Of a stretch of DNA of 64,000 bases, positions 6,644 to 19,417 are shown in pieces. Numbering within the stretch: position 1 is the first letter of the stretch; each line of letters starts with the position of its first letter. The DNA is from an uncultured archaeon (GTDB taxonomy: Archaea > Aenigmatarchaeota > Aenigmatarchaeia > QMZP01). Location of the stretch: the NCBI GenBank assembly GCA_964484305.1, contig CAZAEI010000001.1, positions 26,936-90,935 on the forward strand. Reading direction: 5' to 3'. A program made the position numbers and the translations under genes. Under the pieces are notes generated by a model. That model had not been told where the DNA came from. It saw only the letters and a list, made by a program, of their open reading frames with translations, and ran no database searches.

Positions 6644-9085
6644 ATGAAAAGGCTCAATCCCTTAGATGCTCTGAAGAGATACGCCCCCATTTTAATAGTC
6701 TTTGTTAAGAATGCTCTGAAGAGATACGCCCCCCTTATCATACTCCTTGTCATCTTTGCCTCTGCCCTCTGGCTGAGGTCATTTCCCGCAAGGTTCGGGG
6801 AGCTGCAGGCCCTTGACCCGTTCTTCTTCTACAGGATGGGCACGGAGGCCATGCAGAACAACTGGGAGCTCGGCATTGACGAGATGCGATACCACCCGAC
6901 CGGCGTGGATACTGCCCAGTATCACTACCTGCTGCCAATCTATCTGCCTGCCCTTGTCTACACCATCCTGAGCACGCTGGGCATGAACATGCACTACCTG
7001 AACTTTGCGATACTCTGGCCCGCAGTGCTCGGGGCCCTGGCAGTGGCGGTCGTTTACTTCCTTGGGAAGGAGATGTTCAGCAGCAGGAAGGCCGGCCTCT
7101 TTGCGGCATTCTTCCTGGCCACTGTCCCTGCCTTTATCACCAGGACCTCTGCAGGCTTCTTTGAGAAGGAGCCCATAGCCGGGGTATTCATCATAACCTC
7201 TGTGTACTTCTTTGTGAGGGCCTTCAGGAGGAGCTCCTGGCTCAGCGGAATCCTTGCAGGCATCTCGCTTGCAACCACAAGCCTTGCCTGGGGCGGCGTC
7301 CAGTACATCTACATGCTCTATGCAGGCTTCCTGGGACTGGTTTTCGTGGCCAACGGCCTGGTTGTGGTCCTGGACTACCTCTTCTCGGGTTTTGAAGGCT
7401 TCATGAAGACCCTGAACAGGTACATGGGCATCGACATGGTCAAGGCATACCTCCCCCTCATGCTCCTGGGGATATTCATACAGCAGCCCCTGTCCAGGCA
7501 TATAGCGCTGGATCACATCTCTGTAATTGCCTCACTTGCCATGCTCGGTATTCTCGTGGCCAGGTACGGAATCGAGAGGTTCAGCCTGGTAAGGAGGGAT
7601 TACATGCCCTATGTTGTTCCTGTAATCCTCGTGCTCCTGTTCTCCGGCTCCCTGATCGGTGCCATGTTCAGTGATTCCATGGCCAGCAAATTCTCTGCAG
7701 TGACAGGTCTCCTGACCTTCAGCAAGAGCGTGGTCGGCACCACAGTGGCTGAGAACGCCCCCGGGAACTGGGACAACATCGCATCCACAACAGGGACTGG
7801 TTTTGCCACTGCCCTGGTTCCCCAGCTAAGCTCTGTCTCTCCCTACCTTGCCCTCTGGATTTTCATGTTCCTGGGCATGGGCCTCCTCATCTACAGGTTC
7901 TACAGGACCCGTGACTGGATGATGCTCTTCCCTGTGATATGGCTGGCCTCTGGGATGTTCGGTGTGTTCTACTATGTCAGGCTGATATTCCTGGTCGGGC
8001 CGCCCGCTGCCCTTGCAGGCGGCTTCTTCATGGCCTGGGTCGTGGATAGGACCATGAGGCTCAAGCGGATGGAGAAGGTAAGGGAGGCCGGGAACCTCAG
8101 GGAGAGGATAAACATAATATCTGTCCTGCTCGTGGTCTTTGTCTCCCTTGTAGTGGTTGTGAACCTTGCCAGCGCCTATACATACTCACTGAATCTGGGG
8201 CCCTCGATATGCTTCCCCAGGTACAACAGCGACAACCCCTTTGATGTCCAGCCCTGCATCACCATAGACGAGAACGGGGAGGAGGTCCTTGCCCCGAACC
8301 AGCCCTGGTACGAGGCCTTCACCTTTCTGGCCAACGAGACCCCGGAGGGCTCGTCCATACTCTCCTGGTGGGATTTTGGCTACTGGTTCCAGGCCCGCGG
8401 GGAGAGACCCTCCATAGCAGACGGCGGCAACCTCGGCGGCGACTTCGGAAGGACCGACCGCGAGATAGCGAGGTGGTTCACGGATGATGCCGGGAACTGG
8501 GAGAACCACACCGAATGGCTCAGGGACGAGAGGGATACTGACTACATCCTCATGGACTACACCCTTCCGGGCAAGTACGGCGCAATCTCCAAGATATCCT
8601 CGGACGGGGAGCAGATAGTGGGCTTCCTCCAGTTCAGCCAGAAGGGTATCGAGCCCAAGGGTAATGAGAGCGTGTACATATTCAGCAACGGGCCCTATGA
8701 GATATGGCTCCCCCTGAGCCAGGACGGGAACCTTGCGGGCACACCCATGTTCCTGGTCCTCCAGAACGGCCAGTACTTCCAGAAGAGCTACATCAATGAT
8801 GTCTGCACGAGGTCCGGGATAATCAGGGCAGGTGACGAGAGCCCTGCCATACCGGGATGCGTCTCGATATCTGATCTGGGAATCTACTATGTCCCCCCGG
8901 AGGCCGAGCACACCATATTCACGGACCTCATGTTCATGGAGGGCACCGGCCTGCCCGTGGAGAAGGTCTTTGACAACCAGCTGGTCAAGATATACAAGGT
9001 AAGCCACGGGCCCGGGGCGGAAGGCGAAGGGTCAGGCGAAGAGATGTTTGATTTGGGGGACGCCTTTATCTCCGGGACGACCTAG
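6644..9085 (+). CDS. aglB: archaeal oligosaccharyltransferase AglB (STT3 family)
   Basis: 813 aa with a multi-TM N-terminal half. The WWDYG-type motif WWDFGYW is present, followed by a soluble C-terminal domain. ATG start at 6644. Confidence 0.85.
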   Translation: MKRLNPLDALKRYAPILIVFVKNALKRYAPLIILLVIFASALWLRSFPARFGELQALDPFFFYRMGTEAMQNNWELGIDEMRYHPTGVDTAQYHYLLPIYLPALVYTILSTLGMNMHYLNFAILWPAVLGALAVAVVYFLGKEMFSSRKAGLFAAFFLATVPAFITRTSAGFFEKEPIAGVFIITSVYFFVRAFRRSSWLSGILAGISLATTSLAWGGVQYIYMLYAGFLGLVFVANGLVVVLDYLFSGFEGFMKTLNRYMGIDMVKAYLPLMLLGIFIQQPLSRHIALDHISVIASLAMLGILVARYGIERFSLVRRDYMPYVVPVILVLLFSGSLIGAMFSDSMASKFSAVTGLLTFSKSVVGTTVAENAPGNWDNIASTTGTGFATALVPQLSSVSPYLALWIFMFLGMGLLIYRFYRTRDWMMLFPVIWLASGMFGVFYYVRLIFLVGPPAALAGGFFMAWVVDRTMRLKRMEKVREAGNLRERINIISVLLVVFVSLVVVVNLASAYTYSLNLGPSICFPRYNSDNPFDVQPCITIDENGEEVLAPNQPWYEAFTFLANETPEGSSILSWWDFGYWFQARGERPSIADGGNLGGDFGRTDREIARWFTDDAGNWENHTEWLRDERDTDYILMDYTLPGKYGAISKISSDGEQIVGFLQFSQKGIEPKGNESVYIFSNGPYEIWLPLSQDGNLAGTPMFLVLQNGQYFQKSYINDVCTRSGIIRAGDESPAIPGCVSISDLGIYYVPPEAEHTIFTDLMFMEGTGLPVEKVFDNQLVKIYKVSHGPGAEGEGSGEEMFDLGDAFISGTT

Positions 9086-9093
9086 GGCCTGCC

Positions 9094-9549
9094 CTACTGC
9101 TTGTTCCAGGTCTTGTATACAGAATACAGCACCAGCAGAATGACGATTATGCCCACGCCCGTGGCGAATTCCTCCATGGATATCCCGGGCACGTAGTCCT
9201 CCAGGAAGCCAATCCCGTAGTTGGTCAGGAAGAGCAGGAACAGGACAAGCACAATGGCTACGAGGACATAGTCCCTTTCCCCCTTCTCTCCTCCCTTGCC
9301 ACTGAAGAAGCTCAGGGCGAACCCCACAAAGAATATGGCTATGAAGGCCATGATGGCATAGGGGAGGATTCCCATTATGAACCCTGTGATGAATCCCGTG
9401 GTCATGGCCACCAGGGCAAAGCACAGGGAGATTATGAGCTTGACCTGGCTCCTCTTGAAGATGTCCGAGACCTCAAGTGCCCCGTACACCACGGCCAGGA
9501 CAAAGAGGAATGGTATCACAACACTAAGGAGGTCTGCCATGGGAATCAA
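9094..9549 (-). CDS. small integral membrane protein (4 predicted TM helices)
   Basis: 151 aa and hydrophobic. Its start overlaps the stop of the upstream minus-strand gene (an ATGA-type junction at 9546-9549). Confidence 0.4.
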   Translation of the reverse strand: MIPMADLLSVVIPFLFVLAVVYGALEVSDIFKRSQVKLIISLCFALVAMTTGFITGFIMGILPYAIMAFIAIFFVGFALSFFSGKGGEKGERDYVLVAIVLVLFLLFLTNYGIGFLEDYVPGISMEEFATGVGIIVILLVLYSVYKTWNKQ

Positions 9550-10289
9550 GCCGCCTGTTTGTATACTTTCTTGGTTATATCCTCAACTTTTTTATCCAGC
9601 TCCTTGAGCTTATCCTCGTATTCTTTCTCTAACTTCTCGATGTTCCAGTCTATACCAACCACGTTTGCCTTGCCCATTTCCGAAAGCTCATCGGTTAGGG
9701 TCAATATAAACTTTTTATGGTTGTGGTATTCTCCAATCATTTTTGTCATATCAGTGCCTGGGGATGGCTTTTCTAATTCTTTCTCCATGAGGTTGACAGA
9801 GCTTCTGAGGTTGGAAATCTCCTGCTCTATCTGGGTTCTCTTTTTTTTCTCACTTTCTTCCAATTTTCCCCTGACCTTTTTCCCAAAATATCCTAACGGT
9901 CCTGAACCTCCTCCAAATCCGGGCATCTTTCCGCCTGCTCCGCCGCCGCTACCCCCGCCACCGATGAGGTGGCGCATGAAGGCCCAGAGGCCCATCAGGA
10001 TGACCGCGAACAGCCACCAGAACCTGCTCAGGGATACAAACATGGTGTAGAGCCCCTCCATGACTATGAAGGCGTACAGGGTAACAGAGATTAGCAGGCG
10101 CAGGCCCCGGGGCGCGTTCCCGTCCCCCCTGAAGATGAAATTGGTCAGTATGTAGACCAGCAGGATTATGAACACCGTGGGAAAGAAGAACAGGTAGAAC
10201 AGGGCCTCGATCTCAGATGCGTAACCGGTGCACTGCACCACGCTGCAGTTTATCCTGAGGGTATCGATAATAATATCGAGGAGTGCCAT
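9546..10289 (-). CDS. membrane protein with Gly-rich linker and C-terminal coiled coil
   Basis: The track start at 10325 is TTG; the ATG at 10289 (MALLDIII...) leaves a 93-bp AT-rich divergent promoter region. The protein has N-terminal TM helices, a GGGGSGGGAGG...FGGGSG linker and a Lys/Glu-rich heptad-like C-terminus. Confidence 0.4.
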   Translation of the reverse strand: MALLDIIIDTLRINCSVVQCTGYASEIEALFYLFFFPTVFIILLVYILTNFIFRGDGNAPRGLRLLISVTLYAFIVMEGLYTMFVSLSRFWWLFAVILMGLWAFMRHLIGGGGSGGGAGGKMPGFGGGSGPLGYFGKKVRGKLEESEKKKRTQIEQEISNLRSSVNLMEKELEKPSPGTDMTKMIGEYHNHKKFILTLTDELSEMGKANVVGIDWNIEKLEKEYEDKLKELDKKVEDITKKVYKQAA

Positions 10290-10381
10290 GATTCTATTTA
10301 GGAATTCAACTTTAAATAAAAACAAGTGACTATAATATAATCATAGCAGGTTAATTGTAGCAGGCGTTAGTCGGGATTGTC

Positions 10382-13300
10382 ATGAAGGGAGGCCCTGGTG
10401 TTGGCGGAGTTAGGCTGGCGTCTTTAGGTGTTGTTCTCTTGCTGGCCGTGCTGATGGCGGGGTATGCCCTGGCCGGGGAGTTCACTTCTGAGCCATCACC
10501 CTCAACCTACGAGGCTCAGGTGGCACCCAACATAAGCTTCGATGTAACCAACACAGACTCGCTCTATAACATAACAAACATAACCGTAATCTTCCCCTCA
10601 ACCCTCGAATTCGTGACAGGCAGCAATTACACCAACATGTCTAACTCCAGCATATCAAACACGGCAACCTCTTTCATGTGGGGCAACGCCACCCTCTTAG
10701 GAATCCTTCCAAACGGCTCGAGCACCTATCTCAACCTGAGCTTCCATAACATGACCGCTCCGGGAAACTACAGCTTCGAGCTGAACATCACCTTCACTAA
10801 TGGCTCCTATGATAACGAAACTCATAACGTTACCATCCAGGACACAACACCCCCTACAGACATTGTACTCCTAAATCCAGATAATGATACCTGGATAACC
10901 GCCTCCAGCGTATGGATAAATATAAGCTTCACAGAGCTGAATCCCTACAATTGTATATATGAGAACAGCACAGGAGATAACACAACCAACACATCCTCAG
11001 AAAGCCCCTGTCTTATTCTCGTGACAGACTATAACGAAAGCACCTGGACCTACAGTGTCTGGGTGAATGACACATCTGGAAACATTGCCCAAAATGGGGT
11101 ATACTACCTGGGTTACGACATCAGTGACCCTGTAGGCAACTCCCTGGGGCTTTTCTATCAGGGAACCAATGTCTCCAATGGGAGCATAACCGAGCTTGGC
11201 GACGTTGTGATAAGCGTCAACGTGACGGATTCGCTCTCGGGAATCAACACCTCCCTGAATGGTTCGGTCTATGCGAACATAACAAATTCCTCGGGTTATG
11301 TAATGACCATAGTCAACCTGACCCACACCTCGGGTGACATATTCAACGGGACCTGGGATGCGGACCAGTACAGCGCAGGGGGCGACAACTACTCCGTGAA
11401 CGTCACCGCAACCGACATTGCGGGAAACACCAGGATTTCTGCAATATCAACCGCCCTGGAGATAGTGGGTGCTCCCGAGCTCTTCTTGGACTTCTCGGGC
11501 TGGACTTCGGACAATGCTGCCCCGGGGCATCCCCACTACGGCAACAACCTTACGCTCAATGTTACTATATTCAATGGCGGAGAGGAAGACTTTGATGGGT
11601 ATGTTAACGTCACGCTTTCAAGGTCAGGAGTAGGTGAGATAGTAAGAACAAATGTCTCAAACACATCGCTGCAATACGGGGAGAATTACACTGTGGAATT
11701 CACTGTTCTGAGTGGTAACTTTTCTGGCGGCAACGGATACTATCTGTTCACGGCAGAGGTGGATCCGGCCTCAGAGAATGCAGTAGAAGAGAGTTCGGAG
11801 AACAACAACACCGGCACCTTCGGCCTCACCCTGGGATACAATGTGAGCCTCAACAAAATAAACAACGGCTCAGTGAGTTCTGAGCCCCCTGATATTGCGA
11901 ACGCCTTCCCGGACCGGAACGTCACGTTCAACATATCTGTTACATACGCCAATGGGGACCCTGTCTCTGGGATCACAGCAGAGAACCTCACATTCACAAA
12001 CACACCGCATTCAGAGGGTCAAGAAGACAACAGCACCCTAGGTAACAGGAATGCCATAGATTTCATTGGATGTGGTAGCGGTTTTTGCGTATTCAACTTC
12101 ACCACACACCCTCCTACATATGAAGCAGTAAATGAAAACGGAACACGCGCTGATCCGGGACTCAGTACCATGAGTGTCAGCATCTCGGATGGTGGGAACT
12201 ACACTGGGTCAGGAGGTTTTGACTACAACCTCACCGCGCCTGACCTGACAGTCTTAATCTGGGGCAACGGTAGGGATAATGTAATAGGTGATATAGACCT
12301 GGCAGGCTCAAGTTCCAAATGGGTGGAATTCAACATCACAGTAACCAACAATGGGAATGCCCCCGCATATGACATCCTTATTGATGATCCTGATGACTGG
12401 CTTTATGATGAATCTGTTTTTGAAGACCTGGACTCGGATGGTGATATATCACTTTCTGCATTGAACCCAGACGAGTCCCATATCTTCCCTGGTGCAGGTA
12501 AGGACTTGGAGATTAAGGCCATTGGGTTAGCTTCTGGCAGTGATGAGAATCTATATGTGACAGTGCACTACAACGACTCGGTGGATAATGAATATGAAGG
12601 TTTCGACTATGACAAGGTGGGTGTTGGTGACACAGGAAGCGGTGAAGAAGAGGAAGAAAATGGCGGGACAACGGACGGCGGCGACCTGGAGCTCGAGCTC
12701 ACCCTGACGGACTGGGATGACGAGATAGACGGCTACCCTGGGGGCTCGAACACGACCAGGGTGAAGGTCAAGAACACCGGGGACGTTACAGTGGTGGCCA
12801 AGGTGTCCTTCACCTGCGATGTTGTTGAGGATGACCCCACCATAGGGCCAATCTCCAAGAGCCTGGCCGTTGGAACGAGCCAAGAGTTCATAATCGATTT
12901 CAACATCGAGGATGACGCCGAGATAGGTGAGTACGACTGCACGGCAAAGGCCTATGTCTCCTCCTCAGAGGATGACTATGACACAGGGACCATTGTCCTA
13001 AGGGTCCTGGCCACAGGGGAGGTGGCAGAGGAGATAAACCAGAGCTGTCAGAACCTCTCGGCCACCATAGATGGCCTATTTGACAGGTTCTCCCTGATTA
13101 ACAGGGCCCTGGTGAACGACACCAACCTGAGCAGGGTTGAGAACCTCCTCAATACCGCCAACATCACCCTCCAGGACATACTGGATGCCATCGGGGACGG
13201 GGACTACATAACCGCGCATGACCTGATTGAGAGCCTCAACACCTCCCTGGGCAGCATAGAGGATGGCCTGTATGACCTGGAGCTCGAGCAGAGCCTGGGC

Positions 13301-13717
13301 GGCGGTCTGGCCTTCTCGGGGCAATGGTTCTGGTTTTTTATAATAATAGTTGTCGTGATAGCCGTTGCCTTCGTTGCCTACCTCCTCTTCCCCCAGAAGG
13401 GCTACGGCCCCAGGAAGAGCATCACAGACACGCTCAAGGATACCATCAGGATAGGGGCTTCAAGGGCCGGTGAAATCAAGGAAAAGGGCAAGTCGCTCGG
13501 ATCTGGAAGGAAGGAGCCCTTCAGGCCCTCGGGCTATGCAGGGGGTTATGAGAAGCAGGCCCCACCAGCAGCATACGGCTACAGGAAGGGCCCGGCCGGG
13601 AAGATTAAGGGTGCCTTCAGCAGGCTCAAGGAAAAGCTGAAGAGGAGGAAGAAGCCCCAGAAGGAGGTCACCCAGTACTTCGCCAGCTCCTCGAGCAACA
13701 TAATTAACTATTCGTGA
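10382..13717 (+). CDS. cell-surface glycoprotein (putative S-layer protein) with signal peptide, very many N-x-S/T sequons, C-terminal TM anchor and basic tail
   Basis: 1111 aa. N-terminal signal MKGG...LLLAVLMAGYALAGEF. The body is acidic and Asn/Thr/Ser-rich with dozens of NxS/T sites. The C-terminus WFWFFIIIVVVIAVAFVAYLLF is followed by a Lys/Arg-rich tail. The gene lies next to aglB. Confidence 0.6.
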   Translation: MKGGPGVGGVRLASLGVVLLLAVLMAGYALAGEFTSEPSPSTYEAQVAPNISFDVTNTDSLYNITNITVIFPSTLEFVTGSNYTNMSNSSISNTATSFMWGNATLLGILPNGSSTYLNLSFHNMTAPGNYSFELNITFTNGSYDNETHNVTIQDTTPPTDIVLLNPDNDTWITASSVWINISFTELNPYNCIYENSTGDNTTNTSSESPCLILVTDYNESTWTYSVWVNDTSGNIAQNGVYYLGYDISDPVGNSLGLFYQGTNVSNGSITELGDVVISVNVTDSLSGINTSLNGSVYANITNSSGYVMTIVNLTHTSGDIFNGTWDADQYSAGGDNYSVNVTATDIAGNTRISAISTALEIVGAPELFLDFSGWTSDNAAPGHPHYGNNLTLNVTIFNGGEEDFDGYVNVTLSRSGVGEIVRTNVSNTSLQYGENYTVEFTVLSGNFSGGNGYYLFTAEVDPASENAVEESSENNNTGTFGLTLGYNVSLNKINNGSVSSEPPDIANAFPDRNVTFNISVTYANGDPVSGITAENLTFTNTPHSEGQEDNSTLGNRNAIDFIGCGSGFCVFNFTTHPPTYEAVNENGTRADPGLSTMSVSISDGGNYTGSGGFDYNLTAPDLTVLIWGNGRDNVIGDIDLAGSSSKWVEFNITVTNNGNAPAYDILIDDPDDWLYDESVFEDLDSDGDISLSALNPDESHIFPGAGKDLEIKAIGLASGSDENLYVTVHYNDSVDNEYEGFDYDKVGVGDTGSGEEEEENGGTTDGGDLELELTLTDWDDEIDGYPGGSNTTRVKVKNTGDVTVVAKVSFTCDVVEDDPTIGPISKSLAVGTSQEFIIDFNIEDDAEIGEYDCTAKAYVSSSEDDYDTGTIVLRVLATGEVAEEINQSCQNLSATIDGLFDRFSLINRALVNDTNLSRVENLLNTANITLQDILDAIGDGDYITAHDLIESLNTSLGSIEDGLYDLELEQSLGGGLAFSGQWFWFFIIIVVVIAVAFVAYLLFPQKGYGPRKSITDTLKDTIRIGASRAGEIKEKGKSLGSGRKEPFRPSGYAGGYEKQAPPAAYGYRKGPAGKIKGAFSRLKEKLKRRKKPQKEVTQYFASSSSNIINYS

Positions 13718-13781
13718 TCTAAGAAATCCTTATAAATAGTACATTTAACAAATATGTGAAAGGAGTTCATGCGGTGTCAAT

Positions 13782-14066
13782 ATGTCTATACATTTCACTA
13801 ACATCAGAGATGATGAAAAAATAATCCTTCTAGACGTTTTAGGATATGAGGTTGCTAAAGACGGGCTAATCTTATCGAAGGATACTAAGAAACCACATAT
13901 TTGTCCCATAACTCAAGAGAAAGTCCATTTTAAAAATGTCTCTATTCTGCCCTGGAACTCTAGTATAGTCATAAATACTTCAGCTTTAAGCATCTCTGAG
14001 TATTTGTCTAGATTATCAGAAAGGTGTGATCATCATGGGCGAAACTCAAGAGATCGAGCAACTTAA
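13782..14066 (+). CDS. hypothetical protein (AT-rich islet ORF 1)
   Basis: 94-aa ORF in an abruptly AT-rich stretch with no recognisable motifs. It overlaps the next ORF by about 40 nt. Confidence 0.3.
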   Translation: MSIHFTNIRDDEKIILLDVLGYEVAKDGLILSKDTKKPHICPITQEKVHFKNVSILPWNSSIVINTSALSISEYLSRLSERCDHHGRNSRDRAT

Positions 14067-14745
14067 AACACTTTTGGAATTGTACAAAATAGGTAAAGAT
14101 GTAAAAAGAAAGATAATTGGGATTCTTGACAAAAAGAAATACGGATTTGTCCCCAATACAACAGAAGCTAATTCTTTGCAGAGGATAAATGAAAGTCCAA
14201 TTTTCTGTAGACTTAAGGAATGTGCCGGGAATCATTGGTCACTAAATCTTGTAAAGGTTGGGATATATATTATGGAGTTGAATGATGAAGATGAAAGGAT
14301 ACTCGTTAGAGAAATACGTGATAGGATTCATAAACAACATGGTCCAAAGGGGATGAAGATATTAAATCTTGGTAGCACTGGTGTTATACTGGATGTAATT
14401 GAATACCTAGATGATTTGAAGACGAGGAAGGGTTATGGGGAAGAGCATATAGCTTCAGAATTCGATAGAATTCTCGAGAATTGGGAGCAAATATCAATAT
14501 TTGTCCGTTCAGAACATGATGAAAATGCTCTCTACGATGAAATATTAACACACATGTATAGAAAAATCCATATTTTCTTTGTTTTTGCTTATGGGACTGC
14601 ATGTAAGGTCGCAATGACAACGATTGCAGAGATGAATAATGAAGGTATGATTACTGAGAGATATGGCTACTTGTTCTGGGTTAAACCTGGGAAGGATAGA
14701 GCAGGAAAAATAAAATATACGTGGGAATTTGAACTTTGTACATAG
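14026..14745 (+). CDS. hypothetical protein (AT-rich islet ORF 2)
   Basis: 239-aa ORF, Lys/Glu/Ile-rich, with AT-rich codon usage unlike the surrounding genes. No family recognised. Confidence 0.4.
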   Translation: MIIMGETQEIEQLKTLLELYKIGKDVKRKIIGILDKKKYGFVPNTTEANSLQRINESPIFCRLKECAGNHWSLNLVKVGIYIMELNDEDERILVREIRDRIHKQHGPKGMKILNLGSTGVILDVIEYLDDLKTRKGYGEEHIASEFDRILENWEQISIFVRSEHDENALYDEILTHMYRKIHIFFVFAYGTACKVAMTTIAEMNNEGMITERYGYLFWVKPGKDRAGKIKYTWEFELCT

Positions 14746-14778
14746 GGTTGTCTCATCTTAACGAACTACAGGAATCAG

Positions 14779-16575
14779 TCAGTCTTTGTTCATGGCCTCC
14801 ACTATCCTGGCATAGGCCGGCCTCGTGATGAGGATGCCCACCAGGACACCCACTATCGTGGTTATTGCGAAGCCCCTCAGGAATCCGATGCCTATCGTCA
14901 TGAGGGGGACCATGGCCGCTATGCTAGTGGCAGCGGCCCCGAATATTATGAAGAAGGCCCTATTTATCTTCTCCTTCAGGGTATAGGAGCGCCTATCCTT
15001 CCTGCCTGTCAGGGTCTCGTCTGCGATGATTATCTGGTGGTCCACCCCTGTTCCTATGGCTGCTATTATCCCGCCTATTGCGGGCAGGTCTATTGTCCAT
15101 GAGGCCATGCCCAGGAGCGGAATCAGGAGCACGCCCGCCCATGCATAGAGGTCTATCTCGTGCTTCTTCCACCAGGCTGTGGCCACGAAGAGGAAGGCCA
15201 GGACCATAACGGTCCCCCATATCACGGAGTCGTTTATGGCAGCTATCCCGAGGATTACGACAACCTCGGAGAGGCCAATCAGGACCATGGGTATGGCCAC
15301 CTTGAGGGTCCTGTACCTGATGAATACTATCACTATCACCAGGGCGGCGGCAAAGATGGCGGCATACATAGTGGAATGGAGGAACTCCCCTCCCAGGGCC
15401 GGGGACATGATGTCCACGCTCACTGCCTCAAGTGAGGTTGGAAGCGCCCCTGACCTGAGTATGGTCTGGAGCCTGAGCTTCTCCTGAATCGCATCCTCCT
15501 GCTCTGTCCTGCTCCCTGTGACCTGGGGGTTCTGGACCAGGCGCCCACCAAGGTCAGAGGATATCCTCAGGTCAGAAACCAGCTGGTCATCCAGGTATAG
15601 GAAGAGCACGCTCTCCAGATATCGCTCCCCTGACTGGAGGTCCAGGTAGCTCAGTGATCCTGACGTGATGTCTGCAAACCTCTGGGCCCCATCTGTGGAC
15701 ACCAGCACGCCAAAGAAGAACTTGTAGCCCCCCTGTATGGGTATCACCCCGGAGCTCTGTGGGTCGGTATAGACCAACTCTATGTCATTGCTGTCATAGG
15801 CCTTGCCCATAAAGAGCAGGACATTCTCAGCTGTCTTGTTTACATACTCAAACTCAATGCCGCCCAGGGTGTGGTTGTCCCCGGTCCCCATGGCATGGCC
15901 ATCGAGCTCGATTGTATCGTTCCCAGTAAGCCTGACGGGGAAGGTCTCGTCCCCCAGCTGGAAGCTCCCATCTCCCACCACCAGGTGGACGTGCTTGGAT
16001 ATCTTGGCCTCAAAGTTCCCCTGAGTGGAGAGCAGGTCGTCCACGATGTCGCGGCTTATCCCCGCTACCTCTATCAGGACGTAGTATTCGCCCTGGGCAT
16101 CCCTGACCGGGATGAAGTTCATCTCCCTCAGGCCGTAGAGGTTGGCCCTGGTCTGGAGCGTGGATATCACCTGGTCTATGGTCTCCTTGGTGGCGTTGTC
16201 CTTGGGCTTGAGGACTATGCGGGTTCCTCCACGGAGGTCGAGGCCGAAGTTCAGGTTGCTCTTCTCTATATCGACAACATCGATGCCCAGGGTCTCATTA
16301 ACAGTGAATGTGTATTTCCTGCCATCTGCCACAAACTCTACCTCTCCTGTGAGCCCCTTGGTCAGCTCCTCCCATCCCGATAGGCCGTTCACAGTTTGGC
16401 CATTTACAGTGGATATGACCATGCCCTGCTCAAGGACCCCGCGCGCGGGGGATTCATCAGAGAAGTATACAATCTCCACTGCATTGCGGCCGTAGGGGTA
16501 TGTCTTGAAGCCTATGGCCAGGACTGAGCCGAACACGACCAGTACCAGCAGCCATATCCTCCAGTACTTGAGCAT
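14779..16575 (-). CDS. secD: protein-export membrane protein SecD
   Basis: SecD-type periplasmic domain followed by a 6-TM C-terminus (IIIADETLTGRK...ITRPAY). The track start at 16602 is GTG; the ATG at 16575 gives an ATGA overlap with the secF stop. Confidence 0.85.
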   Translation of the reverse strand: MLKYWRIWLLVLVVFGSVLAIGFKTYPYGRNAVEIVYFSDESPARGVLEQGMVISTVNGQTVNGLSGWEELTKGLTGEVEFVADGRKYTFTVNETLGIDVVDIEKSNLNFGLDLRGGTRIVLKPKDNATKETIDQVISTLQTRANLYGLREMNFIPVRDAQGEYYVLIEVAGISRDIVDDLLSTQGNFEAKISKHVHLVVGDGSFQLGDETFPVRLTGNDTIELDGHAMGTGDNHTLGGIEFEYVNKTAENVLLFMGKAYDSNDIELVYTDPQSSGVIPIQGGYKFFFGVLVSTDGAQRFADITSGSLSYLDLQSGERYLESVLFLYLDDQLVSDLRISSDLGGRLVQNPQVTGSRTEQEDAIQEKLRLQTILRSGALPTSLEAVSVDIMSPALGGEFLHSTMYAAIFAAALVIVIVFIRYRTLKVAIPMVLIGLSEVVVILGIAAINDSVIWGTVMVLAFLFVATAWWKKHEIDLYAWAGVLLIPLLGMASWTIDLPAIGGIIAAIGTGVDHQIIIADETLTGRKDRRSYTLKEKINRAFFIIFGAAATSIAAMVPLMTIGIGFLRGFAITTIVGVLVGILITRPAYARIVEAMNKD

Positions 16576-17432
16576 CACAATCCCTTCCTTTCCGCATACC
16601 ACCTTATTATCGTGGCGTTCATCAGCCAGGTGTTGATTATGTCTATCGCGAGGCCCAGTAACAGGACAGATGCTATTGCGAACAGAACCGGAGAGGTTGT
16701 TGTCAGGATGATGGCTGCCATCACACCAAGCGTCGTCAGTGTCATGGTCATGCCTGTCTTGAAGGCGCCCCGGGTCCTTGCGGCCACGGAGTCCTCCCGG
16801 GTCCTGATGACCCTGGTAGTCAGGAGTATGTCGGTGTCAATGGAATATCCTATAAGCATCAGCAGGGCAGCAAAGCTCGCCAGGGAGAGTTCTATTGAGA
16901 AGACTTGCATGAGTGCCAGGGTAACTATGATATCAAAGACAGCGGCAAGTATGACCGCTGTTGACGGGACGAATGTCCTGAATATCACAAACACTATGAT
17001 GCCCATGAGTATGAAGGCTACCACAAGGCTTATCTGGGCCTGTATCCAGAAGCTCTCCCCCAGGGAGGGCCCTATGGTCTCAACAGAGGTGTCGCTCGTG
17101 TCCACCCCCAGGGACTCCAGGCTTGACCTGACCTCATCAACATCAACCCCTGATTCCACCTGCACGCTGAGGCCGAACCCGGAGAAGCTCCTCAGTTCCC
17201 TGACAACGACCTGGCCGAACCGCTCTGAGAGGCCCTCCTCGATGAGGCCCAGGTCATGCGGTGAATCGGTCCTGATGGAGAGCAGGGTCCCGCCCTTCAG
17301 GTCAATAGACCTCTGGAACCACTCCCCTGTCTGGCTGTAGTTATAGGACAGCAGGCCTGCGGCCAGGACCAGCAGCAGGATAGGTACTGCAAGAAGGGGT
17401 TTGTAGGCTCCAATGCCCTTCTCCTCAGACAT
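16575..17432 (-). CDS. secF: protein-export membrane protein SecF
   Basis: SecF topology and motifs, immediately upstream of secD on the same strand. The track start at 17441 is GTG; the ATG at 17432 is used here. Confidence 0.85.
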   Translation of the reverse strand: MSEEKGIGAYKPLLAVPILLLVLAAGLLSYNYSQTGEWFQRSIDLKGGTLLSIRTDSPHDLGLIEEGLSERFGQVVVRELRSFSGFGLSVQVESGVDVDEVRSSLESLGVDTSDTSVETIGPSLGESFWIQAQISLVVAFILMGIIVFVIFRTFVPSTAVILAAVFDIIVTLALMQVFSIELSLASFAALLMLIGYSIDTDILLTTRVIRTREDSVAARTRGAFKTGMTMTLTTLGVMAAIILTTTSPVLFAIASVLLLGLAIDIINTWLMNATIIRWYAERKGL

Positions 17433-18569: not shown

Positions 18570-18635
18570 ATCCCCAGGCAGCAATATTTAAGGGCTCAGG
18601 ACAACATCTTTCTGTCTATACATGGAGGTTGTTAA

Positions 18636-18965
18636 ATGCCAGAGCAGAAGGGGATTAACCTGAACCTGTCACCGAATGTCATGCCCATACACGCGGACGA
18701 GGCCATGATTCACACAAAGATAAGGGCCAAGAAGGATGGTGACGGCGTCAAAAAGATAGGCCACCTGAGAATATGGTTCATAGACACCCTCGCGAACAGG
18801 GTAGTTTCTGACATCGTGATTGACATGGGTCTCGCTGAATCATTATCAGGGCTTCTGAAAGGGAAGACCACCGAGCTGATAGAGGAACTGAAGAGCGACA
18901 AGCTGCCGGAACCGCAGAAGAAGCCGGCAACCACATCAGGCAGGGAAACAAGCTATATAGGGTGA
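18636..18965 (+). CDS. hypothetical protein (possibly DUF3467-like)
   Basis: 109 aa. Only weak resemblance to the small archaeal/bacterial DUF3467 family; no motif-level support. Confidence 0.3.
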   Translation: MPEQKGINLNLSPNVMPIHADEAMIHTKIRAKKDGDGVKKIGHLRIWFIDTLANRVVSDIVIDMGLAESLSGLLKGKTTELIEELKSDKLPEPQKKPATTSGRETSYIG

Positions 18966-19030
18966 ATGGCCAAAGTCTGTGGATTGTGGTTTCAAGATTA
19001 CTAATAAATATCTTGGCCATAATTTTAATC

Positions 19031-19399
19031 ATGGTCGGGATAAATGAGGGACTAAAGAAGCTGATTGAAGGGAATGCCTTGGCATTTGCGAGTATTGATG
19101 ATTCTGGAAACCCCCATTGCATTGCCGTTGCTGACGTGAAGGTTGCCTCCAAAAACCAAATTCTTATCGGAGATAATTACATTGTTGAGACACTAAAGAA
19201 TATCAAGCGAAACAAGAATGTTGCCTTGGCGGTCTGGAACAGAAACTGGGAAGAGGAGTGTGTAGGTTACGAATTAAAGGGAACTGCTGATTATTTCACA
19301 GGAGGCAGGTGGCACGAAATGGTCAAAGAACTTCATAAAGGATTTCCTGCAAAGGGCGCAATCCTAATAACAGTAAACAAAATTAAAAAATTGGCATAA
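19031..19399 (+). CDS. pyridoxamine 5'-phosphate oxidase-family FMN-binding protein
   Basis: The track ORF 18962..19399 starts at a GTG with a hydrophobic leader; the ATG at 19031 gives about 122 aa. Its pattern (LAFASIDDSGNPHCIAV...KNVALAVWN) is typical of PPOX-like split-barrel proteins. The gene is AT-rich relative to its neighbours. Confidence 0.5.
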   Translation: MVGINEGLKKLIEGNALAFASIDDSGNPHCIAVADVKVASKNQILIGDNYIVETLKNIKRNKNVALAVWNRNWEEECVGYELKGTADYFTGGRWHEMVKELHKGFPAKGAILITVNKIKKLA

Positions 19400-19417
19400 C
19401 TGCCACTGAGCCCTGCA

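Follow-up and report, generated by a model that had tools for sequence, protein, structure and literature searches.

What is a kilobase of AT-rich DNA doing between two GC-richer genes of an archaeal genome, and what do the two small genes within it encode? The question is raised by a stretch of 64,000 nucleotides from an uncultured archaeon of the Aenigmatarchaeota (contig CAZAEI010000001.1), hereafter the window, in which an islet with two overlapping open reading frames (ORFs), ORF1 and ORF2, lies between the gene for an S-layer-like surface protein and secD. An earlier note, made from the sequence alone, took the islet for a horizontally acquired two-gene cassette and suggested that it could carry defence-type cargo. 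Here we show that this kilobase was acquired horizontally and forms a discrete insert of ~1.03-1.06 kb in the spacer between the 3' ends of two convergent host genes. The pair behaves as a discrete mobile unit, which is AT-rich and low in GC at third codon positions (GC3) in whatever host it is found. As to its function, a toxin-antitoxin (TA)-like role is the reading that we favour, tentatively.

A horizontally acquired insert between the S-layer-like gene and secD

The GC content of positions 13720-14760 is 34.9%, against 53.0% for the whole window, which is about five standard deviations below the mean of 1-kb windows (one standard deviation being 3.6 points). Compared with windows of the same length drawn from the remainder of the 64 kb the islet has a z-score of -5.7, so that the sliding-window check proposed in the earlier note places it well beyond local variance. 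All of the lowest 500-bp and 1-kb windows lie inside it, making it the single GC extreme of the region. The drop extends from the TGA that terminates the S-layer-like gene (13715-13717) to the secD stop codon (14779-14781, minus strand). The codon usage of both ORFs is indeed foreign, with a GC3 of 0.32 in each as opposed to 0.63 in the S-layer-like gene and 0.73 in secD, a shift that is found at synonymous sites. The islet and its context are 100% identical in the eight contigs that were fetched, out of 23 on record, and since these come from independent samples the islet is not an assembly artefact; matching sequence and context are also present in separate JGI, Logan and NCBI assemblies.

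The arrangement of the same site in related genomes indicates how the islet arose. The relatives of its SecD place the host in Candidatus Aenigmatarchaeota (DPANN). Orthologs of secD were found in 80 DPANN genomes, and no homolog of ORF1 or ORF2 was detected in these 80 loci (~1.1 Mb), either by tblastn or by hidden Markov model search of six-frame ORFs. The S-layer-like gene and secD lie next to each other in convergent orientation in 23 relatives, and at all 23 syntenic sites the pair is absent. The gap from stop to stop is mostly 1-230 bp, not exceeding 230 bp in 19 of the 23, and it measures 159 bp in the closest informative relative (L008, with 76% SecD identity). Given these short gaps and the absence of the pair from all 80 loci, the spacer of 1,061 bp in the window holds an insertion. 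The C-terminus of the surface protein is intact, its last residues, KKPQKEVTQYFASSSSNIINYS, being alignable with the C-terminal KKPQKEVTQYFVNSSSKLINYS of L008, and therefore the insert lies wholly within the intergenic spacer. In four more distant relatives this spacer contains other, unrelated genes of host-like GC content, namely an O-methyltransferase gene with a MazG-like gene (L031:8118-9092), a NUDIX gene (L025:3491-3895), a cupin gene (L024:9833-10177) and an orphan ORF of 142 amino acids (L021:9848-10341). Thus, the spacer tolerates gene flux and can be regarded as a variable spot. Together with the mismatch in GC3 and the homologous pairs in unrelated DPANN contexts that are described below, the empty sites in relatives make horizontal acquisition of the cassette, as read from sequence comparison, well supported, in agreement with the earlier note. 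The relative with the closest SecD (83% identity; L007, DAOVFN010000101.1) is represented by a contig of 3.4 kb that ends inside the 3' end of secD and stops short of the islet site, the assembly breaking exactly where the composition would change.

The insert is compact, and its two ends, like the signals in its leader, were read directly from the sequence. At the left end there is an AT-rich leader of 64 nt (13718..13781, plus strand), with TATA-like boxes at 13730-13738 (TTATAAATA) and 13750-13756 (AAATATG) and a Shine-Dalgarno (SD)-like GGTG at 13773-13776, 5 nt ahead of the ATG of ORF1. This leader probably acts as a promoter. A TATA-like box is found 25-50 nt upstream of ORF1 in every cassette examined, and the block formed by AAATATG, GGT and the ATG can be aligned with the DNA that precedes ORF1 in the two closest cassettes (L116 and L001), the similarity being gone further upstream. 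ORF1 (13782..14066, plus strand) encodes a small partner protein of 94 amino acids and overlaps by 32 nt with ORF2 (14035..14745, plus strand), which encodes 236 amino acids and has an SD-like GGTG at 14023-14026, 8 nt upstream of its ATG. The two overlapping ORFs predicted earlier are both real genes, as judged from their homologs and from the selection acting on them. As the start of ORF2, the ATG at 14035 appears more likely than the alternative GTG at 14026. The form with 236 amino acids is 100% identical to a database protein (P0001). The right end of the insert is a spacer of 33 nt (14746..14778, plus strand) between the stop codon of ORF2 and that of the convergent secD.

Both flanks are host genes and correspond to the earlier description, a surface protein upstream and secD downstream; secD is followed by secF. 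The left flank (10382..13717, plus strand) encodes an S-layer-like surface glycoprotein of 1111 amino acids with 61 N-x-S/T sequons, against 18 expected from its composition, and a C-terminal transmembrane segment at residues 982-999. Two genes upstream there is a gene for the AglB/STT3 oligosaccharyltransferase (6644-9085), and this arrangement would fit an S-layer-type protein that is heavily N-glycosylated and whose gene lies near that of its glycosylation enzyme. The right flank is secD (14779..16602, minus strand; Pfam SecD_SecF_C and Sec_GG), which converges on the cassette.

Other features of the window deserve mention. Ten of the 11 single-nucleotide polymorphisms between the window and the population contig L087 (12.7 kb compared) fall within ~570 bp, at 8620-9192, a stretch that takes in the 3' end of the AglB/STT3 gene together with the beginning of the ORF that follows. 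Polymorphism has a local hotspot here, and the islet is invariant. Two milder low-GC patches (0.41-0.46), at 9450-9900 and 18600-19400, lie over orphan ORFs with no significant Pfam match, at 9094-9549 and 9546-10325 (minus strand) and at 18636-18965 (plus strand), which may be other foreign or fast-evolving genes. Across the 64 kb no Rfam family reaches its gathering score, and hence no tRNA, rRNA or other known RNA gene was detected.

The pair as a discrete mobile unit

ORF2 has close relatives in ten clusters, with 36-100% identity, and a profile search of 1.84 billion representatives enlarges the family to 264 clusters (at 50% identity) with E<=1e-3. Among the 150 clusters listed the proteins are mostly of ~220-290 amino acids, the remainder being shorter and likely fragments. 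For ORF1, eight related proteins were found (E 1e-26 to 6e-34). A typical pair consists of an acidic protein of ~85 amino acids encoded directly upstream of a basic protein of ~240 amino acids. According to hmmsearch, an ORF1 homolog lies directly 5' of the ORF2 homolog in all the loci with enough upstream DNA (L001, L002-4, L006, L095, L097, L100-102, L105-108, L110-113 and L116), down to 30-35% ORF2 identity, and the two genes either overlap by 8-32 nt or are separated by a gap of 2-9 nt. The pairwise ratios of nonsynonymous to synonymous substitution rates (dN/dS) are 0.10-0.36 for ORF1 and 0.06-0.42 for ORF2, and since they are well below 1 both are real genes. ORF1 and ORF2 thus form a self-contained operon with its own leader bearing TATA and SD elements, which represents an undescribed two-gene family with a patchy distribution in DPANN. 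Source labels, where present, read 'hypothetical protein' and come from Woesearchaeota, Nanoarchaeota and Micrarchaeota, and one contig of 1.8 kb with a family member was binned as Lokiarchaeota. A profile scan of metagenomes with a narrower alignment yielded seven loci. No relatives were found in IMG/VR (two pattern sets), among the INPHARED phages or among the PLSDB plasmids, and the two window proteins have no significant match in Pfam, NCBIfam, PADLOC or PHROGs, in keeping with the earlier remark that neither product matched a recognised family.

The pair occurs in at least ten distinct contexts in genomes labelled Woesearchaeota, Micrarchaeota or Nanoarchaeota. In the closest relative (L116, 74% identity) it lies between the genes for HisRS and Pelota, and in L001 it follows a thermosome gene; the closest cassettes, with 72-74% amino acid identity, are accordingly located at three sites, counting the spacer between the S-layer-like gene and secD. 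Elsewhere the pair comes after the S13-S4-S11 genes (L106), after the gene for the tRNA methyltransferase GCD14, with TGT nearby (L105), and next to type IV pilus genes (L002). In L110 (3391-5714), and also in L111 and L112, it is placed between the gene for ribosomal protein L11 and those for L1-L10-L12, interrupting an otherwise conserved order, and the GC content goes from 0.53 to 0.36 and back to 0.54. The cassette of L108 (208-5849) is located between a DDE_5 transposase gene on one side and an N6-adenine methyltransferase gene and a MJECL33-family gene on the other; no other copy was seen in surroundings that are overtly mobile or variable. Sua5/YrdC, which acts in t6A synthesis, is encoded just downstream of the pair on the same strand in four genomes that represent two lineages (L100, L102, L113 and L115). 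The Sua5 proteins are ~50% identical, and the cassettes of L100 and L113, both beside Sua5, share only 30% identity and are not each other's closest relatives. In L106 (7600-10100) the islet reaches ~2.5 kb, as the pair is followed by two extra ORFs with low GC3, of 130 and 206 amino acids, the latter with a weak treble-clef or zinc-ribbon signal; these may be additional cargo travelling with the pair. The orphan ORFs that neighbour the pair in L001, L002, L006, L106 and L108 contain no informative domains.

In every GC-richer host the pair forms a sharp AT-rich islet. Its GC content is 0.34 in L116, where that of the host is about 0.57, and the corresponding values are 0.353 and 0.538 in L106, 0.356 and 0.531 in L110, 0.300 and 0.449 in L105, 0.347 and 0.474 in L113, and 0.383 and 0.468 in L001. 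The GC3 of the cassettes ranges from 0.15 to 0.39, against 0.48-0.77 in the flanking genes of GC-richer hosts. In the low-GC hosts L006 and L100 the pair resembles its surroundings in GC content, and across 11 loci the slope of cassette GC on host GC is only 0.23. This persistent AT-richness is the least explained feature of the family, and it implies that the cassettes are constantly turned over from a low-GC reservoir or else that selection keeps them AT-rich.

The boundaries of the unit are also regular. The start of ORF1 lies 52-91 nt past the stop codon of a co-directional upstream gene, and the unit, measured to the ORF2 stop, is 1.03-1.09 kb long. Among the three closest cassettes, nucleotide similarity extends from ~50 nt upstream of ORF1, where the AAATATG box and the SD-like GGT are located, to the ORF2 stop, and the 3' spacer that follows has only 3 nt in L116 and 33 nt in the window. 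No terminal inverted or direct repeats, target duplications, attC-like sequences or hairpins were found at the cassette, and the pair travels without a gene for a transposase, integrase or nuclease. Each cassette variant is found at one locus in its population. An integron cassette was rejected since a 3' spacer of 3-33 nt is too short for an attC site, and a multi-copy insertion sequence (IS) was likewise rejected, because each variant occupies a single locus.

Predicted properties of the two proteins

The AlphaFold2 model of ORF2 (predicted local distance difference test, pLDDT, 67.5) has an all-helical N-terminal domain (~1-150) followed by a C-terminal domain (~150-236) of predicted beta-alpha-beta-alpha-beta-beta order, with strands at residues 154-156, 181-183, 212-220 and 226-234 and helices at 163-175 and 188-202. 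In Foldseek the top matches of the model are to SpoVS (2eh1) and Alba (1nfh), both over the C-terminal part, and they are non-significant (target-normalised TM-score 0.52, probability 0.69, E 2.2). When 105 ORF2 members were scanned singly, Alba (PF01918) was the most recurrent Pfam match, in four of them, and SpoVS was matched in one. The best Alba match, that of P0053, scores 22.0 bits against a cutoff of 25 (E 1.4e-4) and brings residues 171-222 onto profile positions 2-55 of 66. The ORF2 protein of the window has no Alba or SpoVS match in Pfam itself, and none of the members scanned reaches the gathering score. A hhalign comparison of the C-terminal sub-alignment of ORF2 with a low-diversity alignment of crenarchaeal Alba proteins gave P = 0.013 in the same register, and it places FFVFAYGTACKVAMTTIAEMNNE against the Alba motif. 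As these weak signals agree in register and topology, the C-terminal third of ORF2 is probably Alba/SpoVS-like. For ORF2, nothing was found by Foldseek at E <= 1e-3 in the PDB or BFVD. Sequence-profile searches of the PDB with four queries (A1, A2, A3 and A6) produced no credible match, similarities to aIF2-beta and eS31 having E values of 0.3 or worse.

In the alignment of 105 members, all the ORF2 columns conserved at 55% or more are hydrophobic or consist of Gly, Ala, Pro, Thr or Lys. Only G76 and Y212 exceed 90%, and Y212 is replaced by Phe in two members, for which reason Tyr212 is unlikely to be a catalytic nucleophile. Since the alignment offers no conserved polar residue as a candidate for catalysis, ORF2 most likely functions by binding and not as an enzyme. 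The family is basic, with a median isoelectric point (pI) of 9.0, and the window copy has a pI of 6.2. Two specific identities were rejected for ORF2: in the case of HEPN, the candidate R59-x7-H67 falls outside the Rx4-6H spacing and is not conserved across the family, and in that of a minimal nucleotidyltransferase (MNT/NTase) the GSx10DxD motif is not conserved. A natural knockout was observed in a pair of ~1.1-Mb contigs, L113 (7745-8768) and L115 (7334-8357), which share 99.5% identity over the 1.1 kb compared around the cassette, with four differing positions in the cassette. One of these is a CGA-to-TGA nonsense mutation at codon 90 of ORF2 in L115, two others are nonsynonymous, and ORF1 is unchanged; ORF2 is thus dispensable in that strain.

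ORF1 proteins are acidic, with a family median pI of 5.0; the window copy has a pI of 7.8 and a C-terminal extension of 12 amino acids. The AlphaFold2 model of ORF1 (pLDDT 66) gave no significant fold match by Foldseek against the PDB, and no matches for ORF1 were found in Pfam, NCBIfam, PADLOC or the PDB. The 'antitoxin' family PHROG 4681 was matched by four of 19 ORF1 relatives at E 0.04-0.05, which is sub-threshold.

Readings of the pair and known systems

The earlier suggestion that the pair is toxin-antitoxin, abortive-infection or other defence cargo was not demonstrated: there is no known domain in the pair and no candidate catalytic residue in ORF2, and the nucleotidyltransferase, HEPN, AbiE-like and RelE-like folds that had been suggested were searched for without success. 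The reading to which we nevertheless lean, with a confidence somewhat short of an even chance, is that of a TA-like module for addiction or conflict. ORF2 would be a basic, non-enzymatic nucleic-acid binder, made up of a helical domain and an Alba/SpoVS-like C-terminal domain and acting on RNA or DNA, while the acidic ORF1, produced from the same message, would bind ORF2 and neutralise or regulate it. The pair would spread through horizontal transfer and recombination, without a recombinase of its own. Nucleic-acid binding by ORF2 is indirectly suggested by the basic median pI of the family. The small acidic upstream gene, the larger basic downstream gene, their tight coupling, the patchy and mobile distribution and the ORF2 nonsense allele are all compatible with such a module. 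The fit consists of features at the level of architecture plus the one sub-threshold 'antitoxin' PHROG match, and it is plausible but unproven.

Several points weigh against this reading. No significant toxin, antitoxin or defence domain was found in Pfam, NCBIfam, PADLOC, PHROGs or by Foldseek (against the PDB, and for ORF2 also BFVD); in PADLOC the window proteins have no match and the 105 ORF2 members only scattered single ones, nor do these members have consistent matches in Pfam or NCBIfam. In ORF1, no DNA-binding fold of the antitoxin kind could be recognised. The Alba assignment is sub-threshold in every comparison (bit score, Foldseek and hhalign), weak but concordant, and the AlphaFold2 models of both proteins are moderately confident (pLDDT 66-68). 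The copies in the window are atypical in charge, ORF1 being less acidic and ORF2 less basic than their families. No near-identical donor copy was found, the best match being 74% identical, and AT-richness may not mean recent transfer, as it persists where the cassette may be long resident (L113). Finally, the adjacency to Sua5 in four genomes and the several other translation and tRNA neighbours are some evidence for a cellular role.

Such a role is the alternative that we take most seriously, although we consider it rather unlikely. ORF2 would be an Alba-like RNA-binding protein and ORF1 its small subunit or chaperone, working in translation, tRNA modification or ribosome biology, and the pair would have been acquired laterally by the Aenigmatarchaeon. 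Besides Sua5, the same-strand neighbours include GCD14/TGT, S13-S4-S11, L11/L1 and HisRS/Pelota; the weak Alba-like signals and the lack of catalytic residues would also fit. Makarova, Wolf and Koonin (2019; PMC6393860) reported that DPANN-specific dark-matter families, including a TA-like MNT-HEPN protein, are typically found in a housekeeping context, which can be read both ways, as it fits a cellular function but is equally noted for other families. Moreover, housekeeping neighbours are often expected in genomes of ~1 Mb, their enrichment is not significant by a rough estimate, and neither the window nor L001, L002 or L108 has the pair in a context related to translation. The patchy distribution, with absence from all 80 secD loci from Aenigmatarchaeota to Woesearchaeota, and the nonsense allele in one strain also argue against a cellular accessory, as do the divergent, non-sister cassettes beside Sua5 in L100 and L113, and a long-resident cellular gene would be expected to have host-like GC3.

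It is less probable, and indeed quite unlikely, that the pair is an old resident or a part of the variable spot that was lost in relatives, its AT-richness being intrinsic and maintained by selection, which might favour low expression, for instance, or an AT-rich structure of the DNA or RNA. This explanation, at that same low probability, partly overlaps the TA-like and cellular readings and also that of an autonomous element. The shallow slope of cassette GC on host GC favours it, as do the AT-rich cassettes beside Sua5 in lineages whose Sua5 proteins are ~50% identical, the fixation of an identical islet in all contigs of the population, and the unrelated genes that occupy the spacer in four more distant relatives. 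However, the site has no room for the cassette in 19 of the 23 relatives, including L008, so that a single gain is favoured by parsimony, and the nearest relatives of the cassette occupy sites that differ from host to host. An autonomous mobile element of a new kind, in which ORF1 and ORF2 would themselves drive insertion past housekeeping stop codons by a novel DNA-binding, recombination or homing-like activity, seems to us more doubtful still. It would explain the uniform unit size, the precise boundaries from ~50-90 nt past the upstream stop codon to the ORF2 stop, the insertions inside otherwise conserved gene pairs such as L11/L1, the absence of any other mobility gene alongside and the unameliorated composition in all hosts. 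On the other hand, the pair has no nuclease, recombinase or transposase signature and no conserved candidate catalytic residue; terminal repeats, target duplications, hairpins, attC-like sites and a conserved target sequence were not seen, and each variant has one locus per population instead of many copies. That the islet is an artefact, whether a chimeric assembly or AT-rich non-coding DNA in which ORFs arose by chance, is scarcely conceivable: ORF1 was left uncalled by automatic gene callers in all eight population contigs, but the same sequence and context occur in independent JGI, Logan and NCBI assemblies, and for both ORFs there are homologs on which purifying selection acts.

DPANN archaea have tiny genomes in which most lineage-specific genes are unexplained. 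The pair provides a concrete and testable unit in this respect, being a strictly paired, widely spread two-gene family that is absent from Pfam, NCBIfam and PADLOC, and its presence is a marker of genes passing between DPANN lineages of low and high GC content. Should it prove to be a TA-like or conflict module with an Alba-like binder at its core, it would represent a new effector type among archaeal conflict systems; if instead it is a translation-linked RNA-binding factor, it would point to DPANN-specific RNA biology. The combination of persistent AT-richness with precise placement within housekeeping operons is unusual and can be checked in existing metagenomes.

Among known systems, type II TA operons (e.g. 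the RelBE, VapBC and HicAB classes) resemble the pair in that two genes of the same orientation, overlapping or abutting, share one promoter, in that a small acidic protein is encoded upstream of a larger basic one, and in a patchy, laterally mobile, single-copy distribution. Inactivating mutations of the larger gene in some strains and the weak PHROG 'antitoxin' match of ORF1 add to the likeness. In contrast to them, neither protein of the pair falls in a known toxin or antitoxin superfamily; the putative toxin ORF2 has no conserved catalytic residues and, with ~240 amino acids, is larger than most, and no ribbon-helix-helix, helix-turn-helix, AbrB or Phd-type DNA-binding domain was detected in ORF1. 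With homing-endonuclease islets and small IS elements (IS200/IS605) the pair has in common that it is a compact, AT-rich insertion of ~1 kb flanked by conserved housekeeping genes, without inverted terminal repeats or target duplications. It differs from these in lacking nuclease or HUH-Tyr transposase motifs and subterminal hairpins and in its single copy per genome, and it does not home to a cognate site, given that the sites of related cassettes differ.

The DPANN dark-matter families cls.004259 (MNT-HEPN/NEQ050) and cls.004340 (alpha-helical/NEQ484; PMC6393860) are similarly uncharacterised, confined to DPANN and located beside housekeeping genes, and one of them is TA-like by domain content. 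ORF2 has neither the MNT (GSx10DxD) nor the HEPN (Rx4-6H) motif of the NEQ050 family. Both families are widely conserved, in 35-36 of 67 genomes, as opposed to the patchy pair. Alba and SpoVS (PF01918 and PF04232; PDB 1h0x, 1nfh and 2eh1) resemble ORF2 in the predicted beta-alpha-beta-alpha-beta-beta order of its C-terminal domain, and the ORF2 motif FFVFAYGSAxxVAMxTIAEMN can be aligned, below significance, with the Alba motif. Unlike canonical Alba and SpoVS, the ORF2 domain is fused to a helical domain of ~150 amino acids and has an obligatory small partner gene, and the basic residues at the aligned positions of Alba (K/R-x-R-G-R) are not conserved in it.

It is conceivable, though on balance unlikely, that the pair represents a new class of minimal selfish cassette in DPANN: a unit of ~1.05 kb with its own promoter, placed repeatedly just past the ends of housekeeping genes with high expression, so as even to divide the L11-L1 ribosomal operon, AT-rich in every host, and kept either by a non-enzymatic, Alba-like 'toxin' that would sequester nucleic acid and be neutralised by its acidic partner or by self-promoted insertion. 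A small, laterally mobile two-gene accessory operon is in itself a known kind of object; the novelty lies in the two protein families, in an architecture that is probably Alba-like and in the way the pair behaves, time and again, as an islet.

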